In this document: positions 4,392 to 42,918 of the stretch, piece by piece
Position numbering within the stretch: the first letter of the stretch is position 1
How the letters are laid out: each line of letters opens with the position of its first letter
NCBI GenBank assembly: GCA_965222225.1
Contig: CBDCTK010000002.1
Location: 2,272,001-2,336,000, forward strand
Reading direction: 5' to 3'
Length of the DNA stretch: 64,000 nt
Source of the DNA: Candidatus Poribacteria bacterium
GTDB lineage: Bacteria; Poribacteria; WGA-4E; JAJDTR01
Notes under the pieces: generated by a model
Database searches by the model: none
Told to the model about the DNA's origin: nothing
The model's input: only the letters and a program-made list of their open reading frames with translations
Position numbers and translations under genes: made by a program

Positions 4392-4480
4392 GGGATTCTC
4401 TATCGCCCTAGGACTTCTATCGCACTGGGATTTCTACCGTCCTCGCTACTCACTCCGTTGATCTATTCGCTCGTTTGATC
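4392..4480 (-). repeat. Stack of partial or nested 37-nt hairpin elements
   Basis: Three GGGAT..CTATCGC starts and two ..TTGATC ends matching consensus GGGATCTCTATCGCNCTCNCTATYCGNTCGNTTGATC. Confidence 0.7.
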
Positions 4481-4940: not shown

Positions 4941-5460
4941 CACTTGAAATTAGGAGGAACAATGTTTTTTGAACTGGATTTCATAGTCTCGGTCATCGTA
5001 GCGGCAATCGTTTCTTTTGGCGTTATGATGGTGTTTGCACGCTTGATTTCTACCATCTTTGGGGACATCTTTCAGGACAAATTCCGCATAAACAGTGCGT
5101 TTATCAAGTACGTCAAATATGCCACCTTTTTGGTTGGTGTTTCGAGAGGCGCAATAGCATATCAGTTACGATTTAATATATGGTCACACTACGACACAAT
5201 TAAAGAGATTGCCCCGAACCTTGATTTTGATCGGGTTGCATTGCTGACTGCAACATACGTAACCATCATCGAAACGCTCCGAGCGCTTGCTTATATGTAT
5301 TTGGCGCTATTCTTAATAATCCTTATGGGACTTAGTAGTTAACTGCTTTTTGGTCGATTTGCTTGCTTTTCTCTTCTTAATGTACAATCATTTTAGACAG
5401 TGTTCGGAATCTTGATTCACACTAAAATACATCTCTATAAGAGAGAAATGGAGGCATATC

Positions 5461-5583
5461 ATGTTGACCAAGCGTTTGTACATGCTCGCGGGAGCATTGC
5501 GGGTTATCTGCGGGATTTTAATTTCCAACACTATGGGATTTTCAGCACACCATGATGTTGTCGTTGACAGAATATACCGATAG
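5461..5583 (+). CDS. Putative 40-aa passenger peptide inside the IS, convergent with the transposase
   Basis: GGAGG RBS; MLTKRLYMLAGALRVICGILISNTMGFSAHHDVVVDRIYR*; TTGCTT..TACAAT upstream; also present in copy 2 (22623..22745, minus strand). Confidence 0.4.
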   Translation: MLTKRLYMLAGALRVICGILISNTMGFSAHHDVVVDRIYR

Positions 5584-5601
5584 CCAAACAATTCATGTGG
5601 C

Positions 5602-6456
5602 TCAGGTGAAGCATTCATCAAAAAATCTTATGAAAATCTCATCATCTTTTCTGCGATTATATTTCCAGCAAGACTCCATGATATACAGTGGCAGCCACTT
5701 CTTGCTGTAGTGATGATGCGTTCCGTAGAATGACCTCTTGACACAAGCCCAAAACGACTCGATGGTGTTGGTGTGAGTTACGCCGTCCTCAGAAACATAT
5801 CTCTCTTGGTGATGGATAACATGTCTTTCGATATCTTCGTCCAGACTATTGTAAGAGCGAAATTCATCAGTCATAAGAATAGACTCATCGGGTGAGACAT
5901 TGCTAAGGATGAATTCTCTGATATTTTCACCAGATAGAACCTTCATGAATTTAGCAACCACCCGACCGCCTCTCTCGACTACGCCGATGACGGGAGATTT
6001 ATTTGTGCCTCTACCTCTCTTAGATTTTGCTCTGGGTTTGCCGCCGACATAGGTTTCGTCCGCTTCAACTATCCCTTTCAGCAATTCATCACTATCACTC
6101 ATTTTCTCACGGAGGCGCATTGCCATATACCAAGCGGACTTTTGATTCATGTCCAAGTCACGAGCAAGCTGACAACTCGATATGCTTTTCTTGGCATTGG
6201 AAAGAATTGAGATAGCCAAAAACCATTTCTGGAGAGGTATCTTGGTACCATGGAAGATGGTTCCTGCTGTAGCCGAAAAGCTAGATTCACAATCGTAGCA
6301 ATTCCAACCAGTAGTAATGTCGTTTTTGTTCTTGCGTCCAACTTTTTCACTGCCACAGTGGATACAGCAAACACCGTCCTTCCAACGTTTTTCCTCTATA
6401 AATCTGAGACAAGATTCTTGATTTGGAAACTCTTTCATAAGATTCAAAATGTCCAT
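5602..6456 (-). CDS. IS1595-family DDE transposase (ISXO2-like)
   Basis: N-terminal Zn ribbon (CIHC..CYDC), VEADETYVGG, MTDE, HTNTIESFW motifs. Confidence 0.95.
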   Translation of the reverse strand: MDILNLMKEFPNQESCLRFIEEKRWKDGVCCIHCGSEKVGRKNKNDITTGWNCYDCESSFSATAGTIFHGTKIPLQKWFLAISILSNAKKSISSCQLARDLDMNQKSAWYMAMRLREKMSDSDELLKGIVEADETYVGGKPRAKSKRGRGTNKSPVIGVVERGGRVVAKFMKVLSGENIREFILSNVSPDESILMTDEFRSYNSLDEDIERHVIHHQERYVSEDGVTHTNTIESFWACVKRSFYGTHHHYSKKWLPLYIMESCWKYNRRKDDEIFIRFFDECFT

Positions 6457-6665
6457 AGCAAACTCCTACGAGAAGAATAGTCACTATGGACATCTACGTG
6501 TGACGAAAAGATTTACGACAGGGTACCAAGTTTTATGTTTGTCGTCAGTCTAAAAGCTACAAGCTACTAATTCCGATCCTTATTGCATACATCATCGTTA
6601 CGGCGCGAGAGAAGAGTGACACCTGAGATTAGGACAATTCATGTTTAGCTCGACTTAGTAAAGTT

Positions 6666-6702: not shown

Positions 6703-6810
6703 GATAAAGAGAATGAATAATGAGAGCGATAGCGATCTTACCAGCCTTTGAAAGCACTAGCGCGATCAAGGGAGATCAAACGAATGAACAGCGAGTGGGA
6801 AAGAAATCTC
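6703..6810 (+). repeat. Two degenerate 37-nt hairpin elements (6703-6739, 6774-6810); the first replaces the centre of a REP
   Basis: GTAGGGTGC|37-mer|ACCAGCCTTTGAAA versus intact GTAGGGTGCGCACCGCGCACCAGCCTTTGAAA at 55899. Confidence 0.65.
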
Positions 6811-6833: not shown

Positions 6834-8803
6834 TCATGGATAGAATTGGTAGGTCTCCACATTCAGCACGATGCTCAGGATACTCCAGATACTGCCCATG
6901 AGAAAGTCGCCCAAGACAAGCCCCAAGAAAAACGGGACCGCGCGGCGGTAACTTCGTATGCCGCCGTTTTTGAGGATGAGCCACTTTGCCACCGTGCACA
7001 CGATGAGCGGCACCAAGAGATCTCCCGGCAACTCTCCGCCGCCAGCTATCAAAAATCCCAGCGGGTGTAAAGGCATCCAAAAGACTCTGGAGCGCAAATA
7101 GGCGAGAAGCATCATCGCCGAGAAACCCGCACCCATGAACGTTACGCCCAGCCAGTCGGTGTTCGTGGGATAGTAGATCCAATCCTTCAACCACCCGTAC
7201 CACCGTCTTCCGTGCCCCAGTGCCCAGGGCCCGAAATAGCCCGAAGCCGCGCCATGATTATAGTACATGTGGAGTTGAATCCAGAAGGAGACAAGCACGC
7301 CAACGCCGGTGGCAATGAGAATCGCGGCAAACATCTTTCGATGAGAGAGATTGGCTTGATCCGCGATTTTGAATCCTTCTAATTGGTGAGGCATCTGCTG
7401 CGGGCGGTACTCGCTGTTGAAAAAGCACACGGTCAGCGATGTCAGGTTCTGGGGTCCCAGCCGTCGAGTGCCCAGCCATTGGCTGAGCATCGCGCGCGGT
7501 GCGTACCCGTAACAGGCGAACACCCCCGCCTCCGCGCGAAGCCGGGTCATTACGGTTGGCGCAATCAGGAAGAGCAGCCCGAACGTGGAAGCCACCCAGA
7601 ACGTCATACCCGCCCGTCGGAGCAGGATAGTCAGCACGATAAGCCCCACAACCAGCCCCCACACCGCGGCGCGATACGGAAGCGGCTCCTCCGAATCATC
7701 AACATCGATTCGCCAGCCCAACGCGCGCTTTACCACACGTATGAAGTGCCCCTTCCCGGTCCAAAAAACGAAAACGCAAAGCCCCAAGAAGCCGCCGAGA
7801 ATCTGCTCACGATGGAAAGGGAATCGCGGCAAAGCATCCCACCCCATAATGTCGCCCAGCGTAAGTTGAACCCGGTACAAGCCGCAAAAGAAAGTGGTGG
7901 AAAGAAGCATATCCAGAGGCATCAGGAATAGAATTCCGACCGCGTAGGGGTAAAGCGAGAGACGAATCAAATCACTGTCATCCGCGAAGAAACTCAAAGG
8001 ACCTTCGGTGACGGTGTAGTATGTACGTTTGACCGGGACAAATGGAACCTGCGGGAAGTGCGTATGCAGCCCGTTAAGCAGACCGATGCCCGCGGCGATG
8101 CCGAGACCTAACCACATCCCCCTATTTTGGAAAAACCCGCCTTTGGGTTTCGTCATTTCCAACGCGAGTTGGGCGATTGGGTAGGTTAACCGTTCGTGCT
8201 CCGTCCATTGGCGCCGCAGGATGGTGTTCAGGCACAGGAAATTGAACGCCAAAACCAGAAAAACCAACAACCACGCGAGCACTACCGGAGCCCACACCCT
8301 CAGATGGTGCTCCAGATAGAGGGTGGACTCACCCTCGTAGAAATCGCGCAAAGCCAGTTCGTCCGAGACGGTGAGCCATCGGGGGATATGCCGGATAAAC
8401 AGTTCCTGGAACTCATTTTCGGGCGTGGCAAACCAGAAGGCGTATCCCAAGATCGACAGTATCGCTTGCAGAATATCCCCGGCGGACATCGTTGTCGTAA
8501 TGCTCAACATCACGTAAAGCATCAAGAGCTCGCCGTGTCGAAGCGCGATGCTCGGGAGGAGTAGGCGAATCAAGGAATTGATTATCATCACCGCCGTCAA
8601 GATGAAGATGACGTTGGACAGCGGCACTATCCAAGTGGGAAAGGTATAACGCACCAGTTCCATCTGCAGCAGAAAATAGCAGTTGACGGGAACCAGGATT
8701 AGCGTGATGAGTAGTAGCCGCGGCGTAAGACCGGGGTTCTTCTGTTGTGGGATCTCTATCGCCCTCCCTATTCGGCCGGTTGATGGTTGAGATTATCGGA
8801 CAT
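6834..8803 (-). pseudogene. DUF6785/DUF6784-type multi-TM putative peptide transporter; first 35 codons disconnected by a 35-nt insertion (remaining ORF 6834..8663, 609 aa)
   Basis: RRQWTEHERLTYP, RLRAEAG, WMPLHPLG and PFFLGLVLGD motifs. Deleting 8750-8784 yields MSDNLNPQQKNPGLTPRLLLITLILVPVNCYFLLQ-MELVRY in frame. Confidence 0.75.
8749..8784 (-). repeat. 37-nt hairpin element inserted in a coding sequence
   Basis: GGGATCTCTATCGCCCTCCCTATTCGGCCGGTTGAT; no flanking duplication. Confidence 0.85.
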
Positions 8804-9122
8804 ATCTTTCAAAAACAGTGTCCAGTGGAGAGTCAAAAGTGTTTCAACTCGCCGCTGACCACTACTTTTCCGACAAGATTTCCTGGAGTAGGAGCGATCT
8901 CCCGGTCGCGACATCCTGTCGCAAGCAAAATTTGCCTCGGCAGAAGACGAGAAATAATTCGCGCTACTACACACGAATTGTGCAAGTTCCAAATGTATTA
9001 TTCTTGGTTGAATTGACTATAAAAGCCTTTCAACCTTCACTAACCACACTTTTGCGGCAGAATCTCCTTGAGAGAGTAAAACGTGAATAACAAAGGGACA
9101 AGGATCGGTGGGCAGTATGGAG

Positions 9123-9351
9123 GGGATTTCTATGGCAATTCTATCACATTCATTGTCCGTTCGCTTAATCCTTCGCGATTCGCTCAACTGATCGGTGCAA
9201 AGAGTATATTCAACCACCAAATCCAAGACACTCTTTGCTTTGCAGAGGTGTTCGTAGGGATTTGTCCAATCCTAGCACGTCTGTACGTTGTGATGAAGGG
9301 GTTGCATAACAACGAAGAATCTCTATCGCAGTCGATATTTGCTCCCTTGAT
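9123..9351 (-). repeat. Degenerate 37-nt hairpin elements (9123-9193 stack; 9317-9351)
   Basis: Partial matches to the consensus, ending TTAATC, CTGATC and TTGAT. Confidence 0.55.
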
Positions 9352-9444
9352 GGCAGCCAATAACTTTCCTTTATAATTACTATCTCATAGAATCCGTATT
9401 CCTTAGTCAAAAACAAACAGTAAAACAGAGTTAAGCGCCCGTGG

Positions 9445-9484
9445 CGGATTGTAGGGAACGCAGATCTGCGTTCCCTACAATCCG
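9445..9484. repeat. Perfect 40-bp palindrome (GTAG-REP-like; possible terminator of the giant gene)
   Basis: CGGATTGTAGGGAACGCAGA|TCTGCGTTCCCTACAATCCG, about 60 bp downstream of the stop at 9544. Confidence 0.75.
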
Positions 9485-9543
9485 AAATCTGTCGCAGATA
9501 AACGTAGACTTCTTCCTAGTCACTAATCACTAGCCACTGCTTC

Positions 9544-12500
9544 TCAATCCGCCGGCTGCGGCGCCAGTCCTGGCTCCGGAATTGCGGGCTGTTCGGTCGT
9601 ATCGTGCTCTTGGCGTCCACGCTCGTGGAATTCGCCTCGAACATCCGGACTGAGCGTCCGCCAGATGAGCAACTGTTTACGAATCAAATTCAAGAACCGA
9701 CGATTCACGCGCTTCCACGACGCTATCTCGCCGCTCTCGCGGGTTATATCAAGATTGATCTGGTACAGTTCCTCCTCTTCCCCGCCAACGGGCGATGTCA
9801 TGAACCGAATGGATTGGCTCACGCCCAAATCGTACGGCGCCAACCACACCATCATACTCACGGCGTACGATTCCTTTTCATTGTCTCCAGAATCCTCTAT
9901 GAACCGACTGAATCCAACCTGGTTCGTGTAGAAATCACTTGCCGACTCGTCCGCGTGCGCATCAAAGTAGTCGCGCATGAAAATGTTCAGACCGAGAGAT
10001 TCTTCCGACAGCACCGTGAACGGCAGGTTGAAATGCCATTCATCGCCCGTAGGTTCCGGCAGCTTCCATTTCCGTTCCAGATCGGGAACCGCCATTCGGC
10101 TCGCTTTAATCGCCGGGTATAGTGTACTACCCACCACCACTATCATTACGATAATCGTCGCCACGACCGTGGACATGGACGAGTAGTTTAGGGTCAGACC
10201 GGCTAACCATCCGAAATGTACCAGCAGCGTCGCCACGACTTGACCCATCAGGTAACCGAGCACCGCGCCGATAATCGCATAAACACACGCCTCCGCGAGG
10301 AACAGAAACGCGATATGCACCGGCGCCAATCCGACGGAACTGTAGATGCTAATCTCTCTTATCCTTTCGTAGACCGCGCCAAGCATGGTGTTTAACACAA
10401 TCAGTGATGCAATGAGAATCGGAATTAACAGGTTCCCCATGCCGGAGAAGGAGGTCATCCCGATTGAGCTATAAAGATAGGTGTTTTTGTCTCGAGCGAC
10501 GAAGAAATCAAGCGCGATCCGGCCCATCAGCGGCGCCATAATGAGATCGAGTTTGTCAACCGCCCCCGGAATCGGCGGGTCCTCGGGCTGGGGCTCCATG
10601 TTGACAGCCACGGAGCGCAGCGTGCCGCCTTGGTTGATAATCACCTGATACGGCAAGATGGCAATACTATCGGGCGTCAAATGGATGTACTTCTGCAACT
10701 CGCTTGTGCTGCTCTGATTTCCCTGTGCGCCGCGCGAACTTTGCTGTTTCATCAATTGTTGATCGATGGGTGTCAGTTCCTCCCCATCGTTGTCGGTCAA
10801 ATCCTTAAACCCGATTCCGAGCACCCCGGTCACGGTAAAATCCGCGCCGTAAACGGAGACGGTCGCTTTCCCCATGTCGGATTCGACAATTCCTAGCAGA
10901 TCTGCCACGCCCTTTGGTAGAACACAGGCATAGGGCCATCGGGTGGGCCATTCGTCTTGATCCGCGGGATTAAACCATTTGCCATAGTAGAGATAGCGAT
11001 TGATGCCGGTGATTCGTGGCTCGGCGGCGCTCATTCCAACTAGCATGTTGGCTGAGAAGGTATAGGGTTGACCGCTCAATGCGTCCTCCGGCGGCACGGG
11101 ATCTTTGAAGTTGGGGGTGCGCCTCAATTCAACAAACGATTGATCGCCTGTACCCGATGATTGATACCAAGCGCGAGGTCCTACCGCGTTGTGAACCATC
11201 AACACCGACGACGGCTGATAAACCTTCAATTCATCCCCGTCCTTCTTGACTATGTATGTGTTCCTATTGCCAGAGATTTCCCATCTGTCTTCACCCGTAA
11301 CCGGCTGAATTACCGTCTGAGGCGAAAGGAGGAACCCACGTCTATCGAATTCCTGATGCAAATTCGTGGAAATCTCCTCCTCCGCTAATTCGCCCTGAAG
11401 TTGTGAATCTATGCTGAACAGGAATGTCGGCTCGGCGCTGACGCTTGCAAGAGCTCCTGCTTCGCTCAACTGAGCAATGGCATCCTCAATCTCGTCCGAT
11501 GACGTGCCTCGCCTCTTCAGCATCAACCGATAATCAAGCTCGGGAAGTTGTGTTTTTCTCAGATCGTTCATAATCGAGCTGATGACTGGTGCTTCAAGCG
11601 GGCGCCAGTATTGATCTCGAATCAACATCCCGGTGTAACGCGGTGTCACGGCTGGCAAGTTCGTCTTGTTGGGGCGCATGAATGTTCGCACAGAGGTAAA
11701 CGAGATTACGGTAAAGGTCAAAATCACCAGCGTGGCGCATGTCAGAATGGTGCGGCCTTTCCGTTTTCGCATGTTGGACACGCCGAGGCTGAACGCCGCG
11801 GCGGACGCCGCCAGACGCCCCACGTCCGCTTTGTAGACTTTCGAGCTTTCCTGCCTAATTTTTTCGAGTTGCTCCTCAAATTTCCGCAAGATGATGACGA
11901 TCACGAATATGGTCAGCACAAGGACGACGAAGGCAATAAGAATGATGACGGGGGTGGTCGTAATCTGAAACGCGGGGTGCACCTGTGCCAAGAAGAAGAA
12001 CACAATGATGAAGATCGCAGCTGCGCCGCCAATCCGTTTGTGCACGTCGGGTGATGCAAAGAGCAGGCGCTCCATAAAGTAGGAGAACGGCAGGAGTAAG
12101 GCTAGATAGAACATGACCCCATTGACGACATCGTTGCCCGTTTTCTTGACATCCGGATAGGCGCGCGATTCGTATCCCCACGCCGCTCGCGCGAGTTTCA
12201 TTGCCGTGGAATATTCTTTCTTGGCGAGAGCCGTTTCTGCTTGGTCCAAGTGTTCGTGTGCAAAGAAATGGAGCTGATCTAACCGATCACTGCTGATACC
12301 GAACCGTTTGTAGAGACTCGTACGGTTCTCGTCGAGCCACCACATATCTCGGACGACGACGTAGGGCGTGACGCGGATGGAGCCGTTCTCGCGGACGACG
12401 AACCCCGAGCCGGTATAGAGTGCCGGGTTTTTGGCGCCGCTCTTGCCCGCTTTTATGAGCAGGAGTCGTTGGCCGATTTGGCCGTAAGACATTGCAATCT

Positions 12501-15500
12501 TTATACGTGCATCCGGCTCGGAATAGACGAGCGCAATCGGCTCGGTGGCGGATACGCCTTGTTGCTGCCACGGTTTGGACATACCGTATTTTTCCGGTGG
12601 ACTGTCACTTAAGCCGTCGAACACCTGCAGTTCTCGCAGTGTGCGCAGGTATCGCTGATCGACGAGATCGTAGATGGTTGTGGAAACGCACGGGAAAACG
12701 ATGACACGGCAGCCTCGTCGCCGGTTTTGAATCCGGAGTTTGTTGGATGTCAGCTTGGCACCGAAGTTACCCAAATCCGGCGCATAGACGATATCGCCGG
12801 AGTCGGAGTCAAGGAGGTAGGCATCAACTTCCTGCAGGCCTCCTATTCGGTGTGTTGCTCGCCCCTCCATCGCAAGTCCCGGCACATCAAATTGAGCTTT
12901 GTTGTTTCCCATGGCAACGAGGTCGCCGCGAACACCCATCATGGTCTTGTGTTTGCGTCGTATAGCGACAATCGGATAGGGAACCGGCGTGTTTGGCAGC
13001 GCGCTCTCTCGGGCATCGTACTCCACGACATCACCGAACAGGTTGCAGTAGAAGTTTCCCACTTTGGCGCCGGTAGGCATCTTGGGATCCAGCATGGCTT
13101 GAATGAGGATGCCGGTAAGCGTTTTCACCTGCTTGTGCAAATTACCGTCATAGGTGAGATCCATTCTGTCAATTGTATCTAACGGGGTGTCGGTCAGCAG
13201 TCGTCCATCTCCGATTGTGGCGAACGTGATGCCGGTTTTGCCTATCAACGTGGCGACTTCGCTGTCAAAGGCGATTTTGCCGGGGATGTAGGTTCGCCAC
13301 GTTTTGGCGCCGGTGGCGCCAATGGCGTTGACGAAGTTCGTTTCGCCTCCAAGCCCAACGATTTCGATTAACGTTTGGATATCTTCAATTTCGTCGGGGC
13401 TTAGTTGAGAGGAATCTTCGTGACGCAGGGCAAGCATCATCGGCAGCCGGTTGAGGAGGCGAATTGTGTTTTTGCGTGTACGCTGCCCCTCGCGCAGGTC
13501 GTCTTGGATAAATCGCTTGACTTCGTTGCGGATGTATTCCATGTCTTTGAGCATTTCGTCCGAGGGCTCGCCGCGGGTTTGCATCTGTTCAAACTGCATC
13601 TTCATCAAGCGGGAGACATCGGTCAGGGCAACCAGCGATTCGTAGTGGTCGGTAATCAGGGTCTCCAGCGATTTTCCTTCAATGGCTTTCTTCGTCTCAA
13701 TCTCGAAAGCGGCTTCCCATTGGCTGTTCATGACCGCTTGTCGAATTTGGTCGTCAGTAAAACTCCAGAGCTTGCCGATGCGTACGCCGAAGTCGACATC
13801 GTTGGCGTACTGCATGAGTTTATTGCCGATAGTGGCAAACTCTCGCCGCAGCACGAATTCGGGCTGCTGGTCGTAGAACCATCCCTTGTTGAATACGGCG
13901 AATTTGTCGCTCTGTGTGGAGAGATCGACTGAAATAAATAAGGAGGTGTAGTAGCGATTGAATAGGTCTTGAAGGGAGATGGCTTGCTCAACGGCGGCGA
14001 TATTTCGGTCATATTCCGATTTGCTGAATCGGGCAAGAATTGCGACGCGGGACTGGATATTGCGGATGCGTGAGTTTCGCAGGGTGAGCATGTTGTCGCG
14101 GAGCAGGATTTTTACGTCGTCCGGGAAGTCGCGGTCAAAGTTGTCCAGCCCGTTCCTCAGGTTCTGGAGTTCCACAATATCCTCACGCGCCTTCTGTTTG
14201 ACAAACTGGAGCAGCCTGCGTTCTTCAAGGTGGGCAACAATCTGATCGCGCGCTTCAAAGGCAGATTCCACTTCGTCACCCTCTAGGTAGTGACGCAACA
14301 CGAGTATCTCTTCCTCAAAATACGGACGATTTACCGACGCATGCCAATCCGACTCCAGTAAGGATTCCAGACGCACCCGCTCAAGTCGCGCGTTCCGCAT
14401 GGCAATTTCAAATATTCCCTGTTTATCCTTCGTCAACTCCTCAATCAGGATGGCATGGGATTCCTTTATCACTCCGCCACCGGCAGTCTCGTGAACATTC
14501 GCCAACTTCTGACGCAGTTGTGTCTGAATCCCCTTTAGTCGACTCAGAATGGCTTTACTGAGAAACAGCCCAAACGTCTCGTCGACATTATCAGGCATGT
14601 AGTCACGTTGCGTATGCAATCGGCTTATACTCGCCTTGATTGGTGATTCAAAATCCGCGTCCGGAGAAATTCTTTGAATGGCGTTCTCAAGTTGAAGTTT
14701 TTCTTGGGCAATATAATCGTCTAAGGTTCTATTCGCCTGCCTAGCGCGATGCACAACGTTACGCGCGTCCTTCATAGCATTCAAACCGTGGAAATCGAGG
14801 TGTCGGTCTAGCAGCCGTTCCGGGGCGTATTGGAGCGCGAATTTTCTGGAATCGGAAAACTCCCAATCTGCTAGGTATCCAGACAGCCGTTGCAAATCTT
14901 CGGCTTCGCGTGTGCCAGCCAGATCTGACGGAATCGGGAGATAATAGGCACCATCTTGCCCTTTTTCCGGTTTGAGGTAGGAATCATCCGGCTGTCGTCC
15001 GTAGCTTCCGCCGACACGTCCCACATTTAAATCGGCTTCCAATTGCTCCAACACCCACGCGTCCAACCGCGCCATAGGCAGCGCAACGTTGTCTACCAAC
15101 TCCAATTGTGCTTCTCGAGATGCCGCCAACGCCATGGTCTGAAGTCCATGCATTCGGTCAACGACCACGCGCAAAAATTGTGTGGTTTGCAATGCGTCTT
15201 TCTTGAATTTGACGAGATTGGTTTCAAGAGTGGACTTCTCCTCCTGCGTATACCCCTGCTTCTCGCGTTTTTTCACGACTCGACGGCGCCTTTTCTGCTT
15301 CTCTTTGAAGTCTCTTTGTTTGTTGCGCAATGAGTTGATCCGGTTGTACGTTGTTCCAACATCGGCTACCGTGGATTTCAGTGATTGAATGGCATCGTCA
15401 AGTTGGTGGACTTCGTAGAAGAATTCGGGGGGCAGATCGACAAGCACGCTGCGGTCAATCGAGAGAAGCAGTTTTCGACTCAACTCCTTGAACGGGCGGA

Positions 15501-17226
15501 GATCGAGTCCCAGCCCTTTTGCCATTCCACCCATGGTCGGAATCCCGGGGGCTTCGCCTGAATTGATGTTGAAGTCCGCCCTCGCGATAATGTCTTGACC
15601 TATTCCGAACATAAAGAAACGCATACCCGCAAGCCCTTGGAAGTGCCCGTCTGTGGCGACGAATAGCATGGAGCGTCCAGGACGGTATTCCTCTTTGCTG
15701 AGGATGCGCGCGACCTCCAAAAGCCCGGCAACTCCGCTGGTCGGATCGGCGCCCGGAGCAAGTGATGGGATTACGGACATGGAGTCGTAGTAGGCAGTGA
15801 CGACAACCATCTCGTCTTTCAAAATTGGGTCACTGCCTTCCAAGAATCCGCGGATGTTTTGTCCAATCCGGCGTTCCCACGTCATGGTAGAGTTCAGACG
15901 AACCATTAACGGCTGTGGTTGGGAATTCGGATTGGCGTTCTCTACATCGGCTTCGCCTAACAGCTTAAGTAACAGGTCCGCATCCGTTCTTGAAATCCAA
16001 AACCGCGGGATGTTGGCAGGGACGGTCAAGAATTTGTTCTCGGCTTCGCCGCGAATAGTGGTTTCGGGTTCTATGAACACAACCGCTTTCGCGCCAAGCA
16101 TGGCGGCATTTATCCACTGTGTGCCGGAATTGAAGTCTACAAGCAAAACGCTTCCGCGCGGAATGAAGAGACTGGATTCGGAGGAGGCAACGAACTCGCC
16201 CTCTTCATCAATTGAACCGTCGTTGTTATTGTCAACCCCATCGTAGGCATCGCCAGGTGTTTCGTCAACATACCCATCGACATCGTTATCAATGCCGTCA
16301 CTGTCCCAATAGACTATGTCGGCGAGTAATGGAATTTCACCATACTCGTCTATCTCGCTGTCTTCGTTGTTGTCAACTCCGTCTTCGGTTTTCTGCAGGT
16401 GGCTATTGAGCACATCGTCGGTGATACTTCCGACGGTAACGCGATGCCGGTGGGCAATGTTTTCCAGCGTATCGCCCTTCTGGACAGTGTACCAGAATCC
16501 ACCGATGTCTTTGCCGTTGAAGTCCTCCAGAGTGGCGTCGCCCCCGTAGAAGAGCGGGGCGCGTAAACCGCCAGTGGGAACGAAAACCGTGTTGTTCGTC
16601 GTTAGCGCAACTTCGTCGGGCTCGTCAATTTCGCCATCCCTGTCGTTATCTTGTCCATCAGTGGCTTGATCGCGCAGATATTGATTATGAGAATCTTCAA
16701 GAATGGAACGGGGCTCTACCTGATACGACTTGGCAATGGATTCCACGGTTTCGCCGTCTTGCACGAGGTGTTTGATCCCCGTGGGCAGTAGGGAGGTGCG
16801 GACGAGGTTGGGCCACACGGGCCATATTTTTACGGTCTTGAGTACCTCATCGTTTGAGGAAAGCACCTCCAGTCTTCCGTCGCCGTGGTCAACGGGAACA
16901 GCTATCCGAAATTCGCGGCTCTCGACGTTCTGTAAGCCGGTTTCGACGAACCGATCGAACACGTACTTGCTTGCGGCAGCCGCTTCGGGATAACCTGTGA
17001 CCCGACTCTCAAGGCTAGAGAGCCGCGCAATATCCTTTCGCATTCTGCCAATATCAACTTCATCCCGAATTTTAACCGCGATTTCAGAGAGACCGACGGT
17101 CGAATCCGTTTCCGCAGTCAGAGGTTTGGGCACAAAGGGCAATGTGATTAAACTAATGCATAAAATATAGAGAACCCTATTCTTGAGTACAGTCCGAAGT
17201 TTATGTTTGTTTCTGAGAGTTTTCAT
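9544..17226 (-). CDS. Giant (2560 aa) membrane protein: M28-peptidase-like domain with LysM and Asp-rich inserts, long helical insert, FtsX-like ABC permease C-terminus
   Basis: SRVTGYP, VTAYYDS, APGAD; two LysM-like motifs; four DGxDNx..DE repeats; SNMRKRKGRT; VYERIREISIYSSVGLAP (FtsX signature). Confidence 0.85.
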   Translation of the reverse strand: MKTLRNKHKLRTVLKNRVLYILCISLITLPFVPKPLTAETDSTVGLSEIAVKIRDEVDIGRMRKDIARLSSLESRVTGYPEAAAASKYVFDRFVETGLQNVESREFRIAVPVDHGDGRLEVLSSNDEVLKTVKIWPVWPNLVRTSLLPTGIKHLVQDGETVESIAKSYQVEPRSILEDSHNQYLRDQATDGQDNDRDGEIDEPDEVALTTNNTVFVPTGGLRAPLFYGGDATLEDFNGKDIGGFWYTVQKGDTLENIAHRHRVTVGSITDDVLNSHLQKTEDGVDNNEDSEIDEYGEIPLLADIVYWDSDGIDNDVDGYVDETPGDAYDGVDNNNDGSIDEEGEFVASSESSLFIPRGSVLLVDFNSGTQWINAAMLGAKAVVFIEPETTIRGEAENKFLTVPANIPRFWISRTDADLLLKLLGEADVENANPNSQPQPLMVRLNSTMTWERRIGQNIRGFLEGSDPILKDEMVVVTAYYDSMSVIPSLAPGADPTSGVAGLLEVARILSKEEYRPGRSMLFVATDGHFQGLAGMRFFMFGIGQDIIARADFNINSGEAPGIPTMGGMAKGLGLDLRPFKELSRKLLLSIDRSVLVDLPPEFFYEVHQLDDAIQSLKSTVADVGTTYNRINSLRNKQRDFKEKQKRRRRVVKKREKQGYTQEEKSTLETNLVKFKKDALQTTQFLRVVVDRMHGLQTMALAASREAQLELVDNVALPMARLDAWVLEQLEADLNVGRVGGSYGRQPDDSYLKPEKGQDGAYYLPIPSDLAGTREAEDLQRLSGYLADWEFSDSRKFALQYAPERLLDRHLDFHGLNAMKDARNVVHRARQANRTLDDYIAQEKLQLENAIQRISPDADFESPIKASISRLHTQRDYMPDNVDETFGLFLSKAILSRLKGIQTQLRQKLANVHETAGGGVIKESHAILIEELTKDKQGIFEIAMRNARLERVRLESLLESDWHASVNRPYFEEEILVLRHYLEGDEVESAFEARDQIVAHLEERRLLQFVKQKAREDIVELQNLRNGLDNFDRDFPDDVKILLRDNMLTLRNSRIRNIQSRVAILARFSKSEYDRNIAAVEQAISLQDLFNRYYTSLFISVDLSTQSDKFAVFNKGWFYDQQPEFVLRREFATIGNKLMQYANDVDFGVRIGKLWSFTDDQIRQAVMNSQWEAAFEIETKKAIEGKSLETLITDHYESLVALTDVSRLMKMQFEQMQTRGEPSDEMLKDMEYIRNEVKRFIQDDLREGQRTRKNTIRLLNRLPMMLALRHEDSSQLSPDEIEDIQTLIEIVGLGGETNFVNAIGATGAKTWRTYIPGKIAFDSEVATLIGKTGITFATIGDGRLLTDTPLDTIDRMDLTYDGNLHKQVKTLTGILIQAMLDPKMPTGAKVGNFYCNLFGDVVEYDARESALPNTPVPYPIVAIRRKHKTMMGVRGDLVAMGNNKAQFDVPGLAMEGRATHRIGGLQEVDAYLLDSDSGDIVYAPDLGNFGAKLTSNKLRIQNRRRGCRVIVFPCVSTTIYDLVDQRYLRTLRELQVFDGLSDSPPEKYGMSKPWQQQGVSATEPIALVYSEPDARIKIAMSYGQIGQRLLLIKAGKSGAKNPALYTGSGFVVRENGSIRVTPYVVVRDMWWLDENRTSLYKRFGISSDRLDQLHFFAHEHLDQAETALAKKEYSTAMKLARAAWGYESRAYPDVKKTGNDVVNGVMFYLALLLPFSYFMERLLFASPDVHKRIGGAAAIFIIVFFFLAQVHPAFQITTTPVIILIAFVVLVLTIFVIVIILRKFEEQLEKIRQESSKVYKADVGRLAASAAAFSLGVSNMRKRKGRTILTCATLVILTFTVISFTSVRTFMRPNKTNLPAVTPRYTGMLIRDQYWRPLEAPVISSIMNDLRKTQLPELDYRLMLKRRGTSSDEIEDAIAQLSEAGALASVSAEPTFLFSIDSQLQGELAEEEISTNLHQEFDRRGFLLSPQTVIQPVTGEDRWEISGNRNTYIVKKDGDELKVYQPSSVLMVHNAVGPRAWYQSSGTGDQSFVELRRTPNFKDPVPPEDALSGQPYTFSANMLVGMSAAEPRITGINRYLYYGKWFNPADQDEWPTRWPYACVLPKGVADLLGIVESDMGKATVSVYGADFTVTGVLGIGFKDLTDNDGEELTPIDQQLMKQQSSRGAQGNQSSTSELQKYIHLTPDSIAILPYQVIINQGGTLRSVAVNMEPQPEDPPIPGAVDKLDLIMAPLMGRIALDFFVARDKNTYLYSSIGMTSFSGMGNLLIPILIASLIVLNTMLGAVYERIREISIYSSVGLAPVHIAFLFLAEACVYAIIGAVLGYLMGQVVATLLVHFGWLAGLTLNYSSMSTVVATIIVMIVVVGSTLYPAIKASRMAVPDLERKWKLPEPTGDEWHFNLPFTVLSEESLGLNIFMRDYFDAHADESASDFYTNQVGFSRFIEDSGDNEKESYAVSMMVWLAPYDLGVSQSIRFMTSPVGGEEEELYQINLDITRESGEIASWKRVNRRFLNLIRKQLLIWRTLSPDVRGEFHERGRQEHDTTEQPAIPEPGLAPQPAD

Positions 17227-18663: not shown

Positions 18664-18714
18664 GGGATCTATATCGCACTCGCTATCCGCTCGTTTGATC
18701 GGTGCGCACCCTAC
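18664..18714 (-). repeat. 37-nt hairpin element abutting a half REP
   Basis: GGGATCTATATCGCACTCGCTATCCGCTCGTTTGATC followed by GGTGCGCACCCTAC. Confidence 0.8.
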
Positions 18715-21630: not shown

Positions 21631-22879
21631 CGGAATTAGTAGCTTGTAGCTTTTAGACTGACGACAAACATAAAACTTGGTACCCTGTCGTAAATCTTTT
21701 CGTCACACGTAGATGTCCATAGTGACTATTCTTCTCGTAGGAGTTTGCTATGGACATTTTGAATCTTATGAAAGAGTTTCCAAATCAAGAATCTTGTCTC
21801 AGATTTATAGAGGAAAAACGTTGGAAGGACGGTGTTTGCTGTATCCACTGTGGCAGTGAAAAAGTTGGACGCAAGAACAAAAACGACATTACTACTGGTT
21901 GGAATTGCTACGATTGTGAATCTAGCTTTTCGGCTACAGCAGGAACCATCTTCCATGGTACCAAGATACCTCTCCAGAAATGGTTTTTGGCTATCTCAAT
22001 TCTTTCCAATGCCAAGAAAAGCATATCGAGTTGTCAGCTTGCTCGTGACTTGGACATGAATCAAAAGTCCGCTTGGTATATGGCAATGCGCCTCCGTGAG
22101 AAAATGAGTGATAGTGATGAATTGCTGAAAGGGATAGTTGAAGCGGACGAAACCTATGTCGGCGGCAAACCCAGAGCAAAATCTAAGAGAGGTAGAGGCA
22201 CAAATAAATCTCCCGTCATCGGCGTAGTCGAGAGAGGCGGTCGGGTGGTTGCTAAATTCATGAAGGTTCTATCTGGTGAAAATATCAGAGAATTCATCCT
22301 TAGCAATGTCTCACCCGATGAGTCTATTCTTATGACTGATGAATTTCGCTCTTACAATAGTCTGGACGAAGATATCGAAAGACATGTTATCCATCACCAA
22401 GAGAGATATGTTTCTGAGGACGGCGTAACTCACACCAACACCATCGAGTCGTTTTGGGCTTGTGTCAAGAGGTCATTCTACGGAACGCATCATCACTACA
22501 GCAAGAAGTGGCTGCCACTGTATATCATGGAGTCTTGCTGGAAATATAATCGCAGAAAAGATGATGAGATTTTCATAAGATTTTTTGATGAATGCTTCAC
22601 CTGAGCCACATGAATTGTTTGGCTATCGGTATATTCTGTCAACGACAACATCATGGTGTGCTGAAAATCCCATAGTGTTGGAAATTAAAATCCCGCAGAT
22701 AACCCGCAATGCTCCCGCGAGCATGTACAAACGCTTGGTCAACATGATATGCCTCCATTTCTCTCTTATAGAGATGTATTTTAGTGTGAATCAAGATTCC
22801 GAACACTGTCTAAAGTTATTGTACATTAAGAAAAGAAAAGCAAGCAAATCAACCAAAAAGCAGTTAACTACTAAGTCCC
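21631..22879 (+). mobile_element. IS1595-family insertion sequence, 1249 bp, copy 2
   Basis: Same terminal IRs as copy 1; 8-bp TSD ATCTTTAA at 21623-21630 and 22880-22887. Confidence 0.95.
21750..22604 (+). CDS. IS1595-family transposase
   Basis: Protein identical to 5602..6456. Confidence 0.95.
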   Translation: MDILNLMKEFPNQESCLRFIEEKRWKDGVCCIHCGSEKVGRKNKNDITTGWNCYDCESSFSATAGTIFHGTKIPLQKWFLAISILSNAKKSISSCQLARDLDMNQKSAWYMAMRLREKMSDSDELLKGIVEADETYVGGKPRAKSKRGRGTNKSPVIGVVERGGRVVAKFMKVLSGENIREFILSNVSPDESILMTDEFRSYNSLDEDIERHVIHHQERYVSEDGVTHTNTIESFWACVKRSFYGTHHHYSKKWLPLYIMESCWKYNRRKDDEIFIRFFDECFT

Positions 22880-22955
22880 ATCTTTAATGTTTCTAAGCCA
22901 TGGTCTGCGAGCCATCCTTTAAGGTCCATGCTTTTTCTCCTTTCGGTGAGCTTGA

Positions 22956-27968: not shown

Positions 27969-28021
27969 GATCAAGCGACCGGATAGGGAGCGCGATAGAG
28001 ATCCACTCCAATAGAGATTCC
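27969..28021 (+). repeat. 37-nt hairpin element plus a partial tail
   Basis: GATCAAGCGACCGGATAGGGAGCGCGATAGAGATCC. Confidence 0.8.
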
Positions 28022-31920: not shown

Positions 31921-32118
31921 GATCAAGCGAGCGAATAGCGAGTGCGATAGAGATCCCCTTGCCCCGCATCGGTAAGATTTGATTAACGCTATTAATGCAC
32001 TCCAAATATAGAGAAATGGTATAAGTAGGGGATAACAAGGGATTTTTATCGAGATCCTTATTCAATCGCTCGATCGCTGCTAGCGCTTTCGGAGGCTGGT
32101 GCGCGGTGCGCACCCTAC
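31921..32118. repeat. Intergenic mosaic: two opposed 37-nt elements (31921-31957, 32039-32075) and a GTAG REP (32098-32118)
   Basis: GATCAAGCGAGCGAATAGCGAGTGCGATAGAGATCCC; GGGATTTTTATCGAGATCCTTATTCAATCGCTCGATC; GGTGCGCGGTGCGCACCCTAC. Confidence 0.8.
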
Positions 32119-42825: not shown

Positions 42826-42918
42826 GATCAAGCGAACGATCAGCTGAGCGGATAGCGAAGGCGATAGAGATCCCCTTGCCCCGCATTGGAGAGATTTGAT
42901 TGACGCCAATAATGCACT
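42826..42918 (+). repeat. 37-nt hairpin element (42838-42874) with a partial copy and a 3' flank shared with 31958-32000
   Basis: GATCAGCTGAGCGGATAGCGAAGGCGATAGAGATCCC, then CTTGCCCCGCAT..GATTTGATT..AATGCACT. Confidence 0.8.

Follow-up and report, generated by a model that had tools for sequence, protein, structure and literature searches.

How a piece of DNA only a few dozen nucleotides long comes to lie within a conserved gene, what carries it there, and what becomes of the gene are questions raised by a locus near the beginning of a 64,000-nucleotide stretch from a Candidatus Poribacteria bacterium (assembly GCA_965222225.1, contig CBDCTK010000002.1, positions 2,272,001 to 2,336,000 of the forward strand). 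This whole stretch is referred to as the window, and coordinates are those of the window unless a contig is named. At 8749..8783 on the minus strand, 35 nucleotides (nt) separate the start codon of a DUF6785/DUF6784 membrane-protein gene from its body. An earlier description made from the letters alone (the sequence-only reading) took these nucleotides for a discrete, mobile, and mutagenic element that had inserted cleanly, with no target-site duplication. On the account favored here, to which we give somewhat better than even credence as a whole, a single-hairpin element resembling repetitive extragenic palindromes (REPs) has entered codon 7 of the gene, 3′ of the dinucleotide CA, probably in a single old event and by an HUH-type route; the gene would have survived, with translation now beginning inside or just after the element.

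The interrupted gene and its empty sites

In the following, G000 is the source genome, G001-G009 are genomes of the same genus, and G010 and G013 are more distant relatives. Read on the minus strand, the gene begins with ATG at 8803-8801 and runs for six codons before 35 extra bases intervene, after which the frame of a 609-aa open reading frame (ORF; 6834..8663) takes over. The frame from ATG 8803 is closed by a TAG at 8770-8768 within the insert, as is evident both from the sequence and from the ORF list, in which the ORF 8768..8992 ends in ...MSDNLNHQPAE. Once the 35 nt are deleted the two frames fuse. The sequence-only reading had noticed both the TAG brought in by the insert and the restoration of one frame from ATG 8803, and the layout and the orthologs bear this out.

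Homologs of the gene are present in 41 of the 41 genomes searched, and the family is greatly expanded: G000 has 44 matches and most relatives have 14-32. The orthologs in the nine congeners are 94-95% identical over residues 1-637 (2-637 in G008) and contain no stops. Seven of them (G001, G003, G004, G005, G006, G007, and G009) possess an ATG 21 nt upstream of the CAA codon with no interruption, and both distant relatives, G010 and G013, have an empty site and a start upstream of the first hydrophobic stretch. The ortholog alignment that had been proposed for finding an empty allele therefore recovers one in seven of nine congeners and two of two outgroups, and orthologs starting at MELVRY are excluded because all of these genes start upstream of it. 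The empty sites read ..AACCA|ACAAC.., and since both A's of the junction already exist there, the insertion created no target-site duplication, not even of 1 nt, in agreement with the original claim.

The same empty sites in the seven congeners fix both ends of the inserted unit at 8749..8783 (minus strand), where it consists of a hairpin with a conserved tail and corresponds to positions 2-36 of a 37-position family consensus. The length of 35 nt given in the sequence-only reading is thus correct, its interval of 8750-8784 is displaced by one position (within the 1-nt ambiguity that it allowed), and its restored residue 7, read as P, is Q (CAA) in the orthologs. Immediately 5′ of the insert is the target dinucleotide CA (8784..8785, minus strand), which is found in the empty sites and occupies consensus positions 0-1, mostly GA in the family. 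The orphaned 5′ end of the gene (8784..8803, minus strand), six and two-thirds codons that open with ATG 8803-8801, is colinear with the ortholog starts, and the left flank of G000 aligns to the empty-site genomes with scores of 44-61, compared to a shuffle maximum of 25.

The gene body (6834..8748, minus strand; 637 codons from 8747 and a stop), recognized by Pfam and by its orthologs, has its first canonical in-frame start at ATG 8663-8661. An ORF beginning there matches Pfam DUF6785 over profile positions 23-498 (448.6 bits), and the stop-to-stop frame extended back to 8792 matches over positions 1-498 (468.3 bits). As the upstream 22 residues complete the profile, the sequence from the insert to ATG 8663 truly belongs to the coding region. 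The C-terminus matches DUF6784 (99.6 bits), and both profiles are matched full-length above their curated cut-offs. The gene adjoins a 2560-aa ORF (9544-17226, minus strand).

The inserted 35-mer has one match in the window at ≤3 mismatches, where 0 are expected, and 469 matches across the G000 genome at ≤8 mismatches; its resemblance to other copies is not due to chance. At consensus position 9 this copy carries G, a base found there in four of 655 copies, the usual A being found in 645.

Filled and empty sites elsewhere

Syntenic DNA was collected for most of the window from the nine congeners, every copy of the repeat was checked for a counterpart in which its flanks are joined, and the junctions were read by eye from printed alignments. 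Among 121 syntenic copies in the 10 genomes, 19 have a near-empty counterpart, equivalent to 17 loci after merging of orthologous and duplicate rows, and in 15 of these 17 polymorphic loci the net difference is +34 to +36 nt. Three insertions are into non-repeat DNA: that in the present gene, one at a G006 locus, and one at a G004 locus. All three add exactly 35 nt, after CA, GA, and CA, respectively, and in each the dinucleotide is retained in the empty site. Consensus positions 0-1 thus belong to the target and not to the mobile DNA, both bases being present in the empty sites, and in two cases with an off-consensus C at position 0 the C was inherited from the target. The element moves as a 34-36-nt unit, and its earlier description as mobile in discrete form is sustained by these three clean comparisons of filled and empty sites, none of which shows a duplication.

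Structured DNA makes up many of the other targets. Of the 17 loci, seven are in loops of GTAG-plus-hairpin repeats and three are within or next to a further family member; nesting of a second copy is also seen at the present site in G002 and, for the copy at 18664-18700, in its G005 ortholog. The junctions in hairpin-loop and nested targets depart by 1-2 nt from a clean 35-nt insertion, which counts against the favored account; these deviations may reflect either the mechanism or later change.

Age of the insertion

Two congeners, G008 and G002, carry the element at the same right junction and in the same orientation as G000, and the G002 site contains a second copy within the first, which makes 70 nt in total. 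All three filled copies belong to a subtype that includes 49 of 655 copies, or 7 of 655 by a strict definition, frequencies that are drawn from G000 only. The 22 nt to the left of the insert in G002 are identical to the orphaned start of G000 at 17 positions, with the similarity ending at the junction (shuffle p ~0.03), and they include two derived bases held in common with G000 against all seven empty sites. In G002 the original ATG has been lost and a new in-frame ATG stands upstream of both copies. The common position, orientation, and rare subtype, together with the derived left flank in G000 and G002, favor a single origin.

Other findings weigh against it. The left flank of G008 matches over only ~7 nt, and its alignment to that of G000 is not significant. 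In the tree of the neighboring 7.7-kb gene, G000 groups with G005 and G008 (100/100) and G002 with G009 and G001 (100/99), and a clade of the filled genomes is rejected on this gene by the approximately unbiased (AU) test (p = 4e-49); on the DUF6785 gene itself the same clade receives p = 0.06. Because the three filled genomes are not a clade, a single insertion needs extra events. On the DUF6785 gene G005 groups with the other clade, unlike on the 7.7-kb gene; this difference in placement implies recombination between species here, with a breakpoint between the two genes. We infer that the insertion is probably old and arose in one event, and that interspecies recombination or exact excision later shaped its distribution. 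Repeated insertion at a hot spot is a less likely alternative.

Fate of the gene

The ORF extends for 636-637 codons without stops in G000, G008, and G002. The ratio of nonsynonymous to synonymous substitution rates (dN/dS) is 0.042-0.058 between filled genomes and 0.021-0.034 for three pairs of empty-site genomes, and synonymous divergence (dS) between the filled genomes amounts to 0.49-0.59. Over the 28 codons from the insert to ATG 8663, G000 and G008 differ at seven of the compared codons, with two nonsynonymous changes, both confined to the first six codons, and five synonymous ones; codons 7-28 contain no nonsynonymous and four synonymous changes. Between G002 and G009, codons 1-28 show no nonsynonymous and three synonymous changes. 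Provided that the insertion predates these changes, the stretch encoding the first hydrophobic helix would still be translated, as it is still constrained. RNA libraries of two studies yielded contigs that cross the insert (X15, 8300-8822; X17, 8732-9053), although these attest to presence only and not to a transcript start, and they could stem from carried-over DNA.

The frame is open from 8792 through the element in G000, and open through the element in G008 too. Within the element, a putative Shine-Dalgarno-like GGGAGGG (8768-8762) is followed by an in-frame ATC (8753-8751), 9 nt after GGAGG (together 8751..8768, minus strand), and the bases of this region are kept in G008 and G002. Translation probably restarts inside or just after the element, perhaps at the ATC behind GGGAGGG, the likeliest candidate start. 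Non-AUG starts are weak.

An opposite conclusion is that the insertion killed the gene in G000, that the ORF is intact because there has been too little time for it to decay, and that three independent insertions struck a hot spot. We consider this unlikely, though with an appreciable chance of being right. Against survival, the open frame ahead of 8663 contains no ATG, GTG, or TTG in either G000 or G008, and changes private to G000 number 13 nonsynonymous to 30 synonymous compared to 10:84 in the seven empty-site genomes (Fisher p = 0.0066), a ratio 3.6 times as high. Constraint is somewhat relaxed in G000, where recent loss of function is possible; with 44 family matches in that genome the loss of one paralog may be tolerable, and filled genomes that do not form a clade suit independent insertions. 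However, at the synonymous divergence given above none of the three ORFs has acquired a stop or a frameshift, codons 7-28 of G000 and G008 differ only synonymously, and G002 has gained its in-frame ATG upstream of two nested copies. Independent insertions would also have to arrive at a common position and orientation with a subtype of at most 49 in 655 copies, and they leave the derived bases common to the left flanks of G000 and G002 to be accounted for.

The gene has probably not been killed. What holds of the 'mutagenic' effect proposed in the sequence-only reading is that the start codon is severed and its frame meets a TAG; the presence of the insertion in two other species, with the ORF intact and under purifying selection, counts against the rest. 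A gene outliving the loss of its start codon bears on how starts and pseudogenes are called in repeat-rich metagenome-assembled genomes (MAGs).

The repeat family and its hairpin

The G000 genome contains 655 canonical copies (degenerate core, ≤3 mismatches; 362 of them plus-strand and 293 minus-strand) and 1182 hairpin heads (≤1 mismatch). With the core at ≤2 mismatches, each of the 10 genomes of the genus has 383-880 copies, the sister genus has 3, four g4 genomes have 18-28, and two g6 genomes have 18 and 1, while the core was not found in the remaining 44 of 61 genomes searched and a reversed control pattern gave 0 everywhere. Conservation spans 37 positions, the logo reading GATCAA next to the stem and G, C/G, G, A in the left flank. 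Among the 655 copies, position 0 holds G in 593 and C in 19, and A occupies position 1 in 641. Read from the consensus, the unit has no stop in four of its six frames. Rfam yields nothing over the element and four weak matches elsewhere in 8500-9500 (E ≥ 0.23).

Four pairs of the hairpin, 6:22, 7:21, 10:18, and 11:17, are standard or wobble in 95-96% of copies (n=655), and each occurs as several pair types. Mutual information is 0.45-1.15 bits for 6:22, 10:18, and 11:17 and ≤0.10 for the other column pairs in the matrix, which did not include 7:21. Between the pairs is a fixed tandem mismatch, G.A at 8:20 in 611 copies and A.G at 9:19 in 627. G:T or T:G occurs 204, 24, 22, and 83 times at the four pairs in the order given and A:C is rare, an asymmetry indicating that the structure is selected on one strand only. 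Predicted nearest-neighbor folding is weak, with -3.6 to -5.7 kcal/mol and z of -0.16 to -1.7 for three copies on both strands versus shuffles. Since the predicted folding is no better than that of shuffles, the structural case is one of covariation, from which folding of the strand in vivo would follow.

Copies are concentrated outside genes: on a crude longest-ORF gene map, 78 of 655 (12%) lie inside ORFs compared to 80% of random positions. A few stand in long open frames without breaking them (G000:C2:2921271-2921308, 701597-701634, and 2910569-2910606), among them one at about residue 1287 of a 2418-aa TamB/AsmA-like protein and another that is nested within a GTAG-type REP and falls close to the N-terminus of an Eco57I-type methylase ORF. 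Neighbors within 400 nt are direct in 132 cases and inverted in 31, a pattern that does not point to inverted doublets (REPINs) as the replicating unit. Heads nested right behind a preceding head account for 116 of 1182, and direct arrays of copies occur with 23- and 38-nt periods.

Orientation is linked to local GC skew (odds ratio 0.24, p = 1e-18), which serves here as a proxy for replication direction only and has a patchy profile along the contig. This link is seen in each of the four classes of flanking-gene orientation (p < 0.004 each). Keeping a single copy in every 400 nt (n=497, p = 2e-14) or 5 kb (n=287, p = 1.5e-7) leaves it in place, and with a single copy in every 20 kb the direction is unchanged, with p = 0.11 (n=77). 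Orientation shows no bias with respect to the flanking genes (192 co-oriented vs 179 opposed). Along the 5.6-Mb contig G000:C2 the skew flips sign many times, which suggests many inversions, possibly mediated by insertion sequences (ISs), or assembly joins.

Route of insertion

An HUH/Y1-type single-strand mechanism fits these features best. The propagating form would be a folded single strand composed of the four covarying pairs around the tandem G.A/A.G and then the conserved tail. Insertion takes place after (G/C)A, often in the hairpin loops of GTAG-type REPs or in the tail of another copy. The engine would be an HUH (Y1) single-strand transposase acting in trans, as in IS200/IS605 and in REPs with the tyrosine transposases associated with them (RAYTs). 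A single-strand route is described for both systems (PMC8266576; PMC6006769). Five features together place an HUH-type route ahead of a miniature inverted-repeat transposable element (MITE) moved by a DDE transposase: the lack of duplication, a 5′ target outside the element, a strand-specific fold, landing in hairpin loops, and the tie to skew. The sequence-only reading had likewise argued against DDE transposition and for HUH or site-specific insertion. The missing duplication, the (G/C)A target, the strand-specific hairpin, and the skew-linked orientation lend weight to that view, while no enzyme could be tied to the family.

Candidate enzymes are nevertheless present. G000 has five Pfam Y1_Tnp (PF01797) matches, the best of which is an intact 157-aa IS200-like protein that scores 65.8 bits with the NCBIfam IS200 model (cut-off 55) and 30.6 bits with the REP-transposase model (cut-off 80); its PDB relatives, with weak E-values, are the transposases of ISDra2 and IS608. 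Family copies lie on both sides of this gene in G000, in inverted orientation. This arrangement was considered as a RAYT-like signature specific to the family and dropped as such on account of a different conserved flank repeat and a lack of co-distribution. The different hairpin repeat stands on both sides of the gene at ≥30 Poribacteria loci. It forms an inverted pair (G000:C2:3078872-3082216 and other loci) whose stem shifts with the gene clade, and together with the 157-aa Y1 protein it looks like a second REP/RAYT-like pairing, one whose transposase scores as IS200 and not as RAYT. The best true RAYT in G000 (NF047646, 133.9 bits) is broken by a TAG. On its flanks are GTAG-type REPs, and the loop of one of them again contains a copy of the 35-nt family. 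A hairpin of the REP family that flanks this RAYT occurs upstream of the interrupted gene (8888..8911, plus strand), and a depth spike covers 8898-8958 in all four runs whose contigs were compared.

Several observations oppose the assignment of either enzyme. A family copy sits inside the 157-aa Y1 flank repeat in G000, G001, and G005; the Y1 gene is found in genomes without family copies (9 of 19 g3 genomes) and was not found in two of the four g4 genomes that hold them; the RAYT match in G008 reaches just 47.6 bits, yet that genome has 644 family copies; and neither the Y1 gene nor RAYT tracks the family over the 61 genomes. As these distributions do not follow the family, the enzyme class is read from the footprint and no gene is assigned. 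TnpB was not found in G000. A search for a long parent element with split ends gave many hits, which nested arrays explain (the hits were not inspected singly), and it revealed no full-length parent whose ends match.

The sign of the orientation bias presents a further difficulty. In IS608, the strand that is used is related to the direction of replication. The abstract of the relevant study is consistent with this rule (PMC6006769). In the present family the G:T-tolerant strand is mostly on the C-rich strand, opposite to the IS608 expectation, a conflict that assumes the G:T-tolerant strand to be the active one and the G-rich strand to be the leading one.

Movement by other means, such as a tyrosine, serine, or DEDD/IS110-like recombinase or a host repair or replication process (template switching at hairpins, gene conversion between repeats), is accordingly to be weighed, and, although no search was aimed at a candidate recombinase, we regard it as improbable, if less so than the two explanations that follow. 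The absence of a Y1 gene that tracks the family, the untidiness of 1-2 nt at hairpin-loop junctions, and the reversed sign of the orientation bias would all be compatible with it, and the arrays of 23- and 38-nt period could grow by slippage. Nevertheless, the three insertions into unique DNA are each of exactly 35 nt at sites without homology to the tail of the element, the G:T-asymmetric covariation points to a folded single strand as the form under selection, and the target motif lies on the 5′ side only.

A terminal-inverted-repeat MITE moved by a DDE transposase is very improbable. GATC stands at both ends of the 37-nt consensus, where it can be read as a 4-nt inverted repeat, and an active-looking IS1595 element is located at 5325-6575 in the window. 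However, the left G and A of the consensus are target and not insert, the empty sites contradict a duplication in every clean case, orientation is strand-biased, and no similarity to the ends of IS1595 is visible. An assembly or sequencing artefact, which a MAG-like assembly of two contigs and the tendency of repeats to cause misjoins might bring to mind, is hardly credible given that 16 runs hold at least half of the sampled words of the filled form (20 holding rows from 9 studies), that contigs of four runs bridge or abut the insert with 0-3 differences, and that two other species have the same junction. No join skipping 8749-8783 occurs among the contigs of the four runs (two of them RNA libraries), in which rare variants are dropped and which are thus uninformative on this point.

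Relation to known mobile repeats

REPs and REPINs with their RAYTs (REPtrons) are likewise short imperfect palindromes that occur in hundreds of copies, are strongly extragenic, and are recognized as a folded single strand. The G000 genome also contains REP-class Y1 genes, one of them flanked by bona fide GTAG-type REPs. In E. coli an irregular REP stem is needed for activity (PMC8266576), and the fixed tandem G.A may be its counterpart here. Unlike REPtrons, the present family has no GTAG of its own, its neighbors are mostly direct, and no cognate RAYT was identified. GTAG does occur at fixed offsets upstream of the heads (-16, -9, -8, and -4; 279 counts per 1182 heads), but these GTAGs belong to the host REPs. 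Bertels and Rainey describe REP singlets as immobile remnants, with no singlet excision in ~56 million reads (PMC3116915). The present family differs in that the lone hairpin is itself the inserted unit.

PATE-type MITEs are transposase-less derivatives of IS200/IS605. With that family, exemplified by IS608 and ISDra2, the repeat has in common the lack of target duplication and insertion 3′ of a short motif outside the element. Dependence on a hairpin, strand specificity, and a possible link to replication direction are further likenesses (PMC6006769; PMC8266576). Seamless excision, a trait of IS200/IS605, would explain the patchy distribution of the present insertion. In contrast to IS200/IS605, there is one hairpin in 35 nt, G000 has no TnpB, and the orientation bias is of the opposite sign to that of IS608; covariation supports this single hairpin and reveals no distinct subterminal hairpins at the left and right ends such as IS200/IS605 elements possess. 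The family is consequently REP-like or minimally IS200/IS605-like, yet misses defining features of both.

The nearest analogue may be found in the small dispersed repeats (SDRs) of cyanobacteria, which are likewise very small and mobile with no known transposase. SDR5 is described in a secondary source as inserting precisely at a fixed position inside the HIP1 repeat (PMC4390886). SDRs differ in phylum and sequence, and the comparison relies on secondary mentions of Elhai et al. 2008 (Genome Res 18:1484). Elements of the IS110/IS1111 type, for example ISPpu9, resemble the family in using REP hairpins as landing sites without duplication; unlike the 35-nt non-coding unit, they are of kilobase size and encode a DEDD transposase.

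A more specific version of the favored account can be drawn, although we think it rather doubtful in its entirety. The family would be a self-sufficient single-hairpin unit of 35 nt with neither GTAG nor REPIN doublet. Cleavage and joining would occur in single-stranded form behind (G/C)A, with a preference for the exposed loops of other REP hairpins and for its own tail, so that it would be parasitic on REPs, and it would be capable of seamless exit. The copy in this gene would be stuck at its off-consensus CA, where its GGGAGGG and ATC would have become ribosome-binding site and start; a mobile repeat would in this way have rebuilt the 5′ end of a gene that was then kept over a species-level time span.

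Searches of a literature library returned no publication on REP-like mobile repeats in Poribacteria. How REP-type sequences spread is still debated, and movement of REPs and REPINs has hardly ever been caught. Filled and empty sites that are exact to the base, for a lone 35-nt hairpin and in several species, constitute rare evidence of tiny repeats moving alone. A target rule accompanies them, together with a covarying structure that is strand-specific and an apparent tie to the direction of replication, all from an uncultivated phylum of sponge symbionts, and they offer concrete substrates for testing Y1 enzymes and for the study of repeats that land inside repeats.

Further repeats in and around the window

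Besides the copy in the interrupted gene, members of the family in their 37-nt frame are located at 4427..4463 (minus strand), a canonical copy; at 6703..6739 (plus strand), within a GTAG-type hairpin repeat just downstream of the gene and with a second, degenerate head from 6774; at 9316..9352 (minus strand), a copy common to G005 and represented in four other congeners by a shorter, non-clean form; and at 18664..18700 (minus strand), within a GTAG-type hairpin, this being the copy whose G005 ortholog holds a second, nested one. Two copies, at 27969..28005 and 31921..31957 (both plus strand), have 0 core mismatches, and another lies at 42838..42874 (plus strand).

Several classical-looking REP families, each with GTAG and a GC-rich palindrome, are present in the genome (8888-8911, 6664-6685, 9449-9480, and G000:C2:3088913-3089326). 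The palindrome at 9449-9480 is perfect, recurs at ~24 loci in G000, and has very high depth in all four runs. An IS of 1251 bp is found twice in the window, at 5325-6575 and 21631-22881, in inverted and 100% identical copies that encode a 284-aa IS1595/ISXO2-type transposase; with at least 29 further near-identical copies in G000, it looks recently active.

Tandem heptamer repeats lie upstream of the interrupted gene at 8815-8835 and 9515-9540. They are reminiscent of the heptamer repeats of heterocystous cyanobacteria. Their copy number varies among species and also among contigs of the runs, which show 7-nt insertions at 8821, 8823, and 9532.

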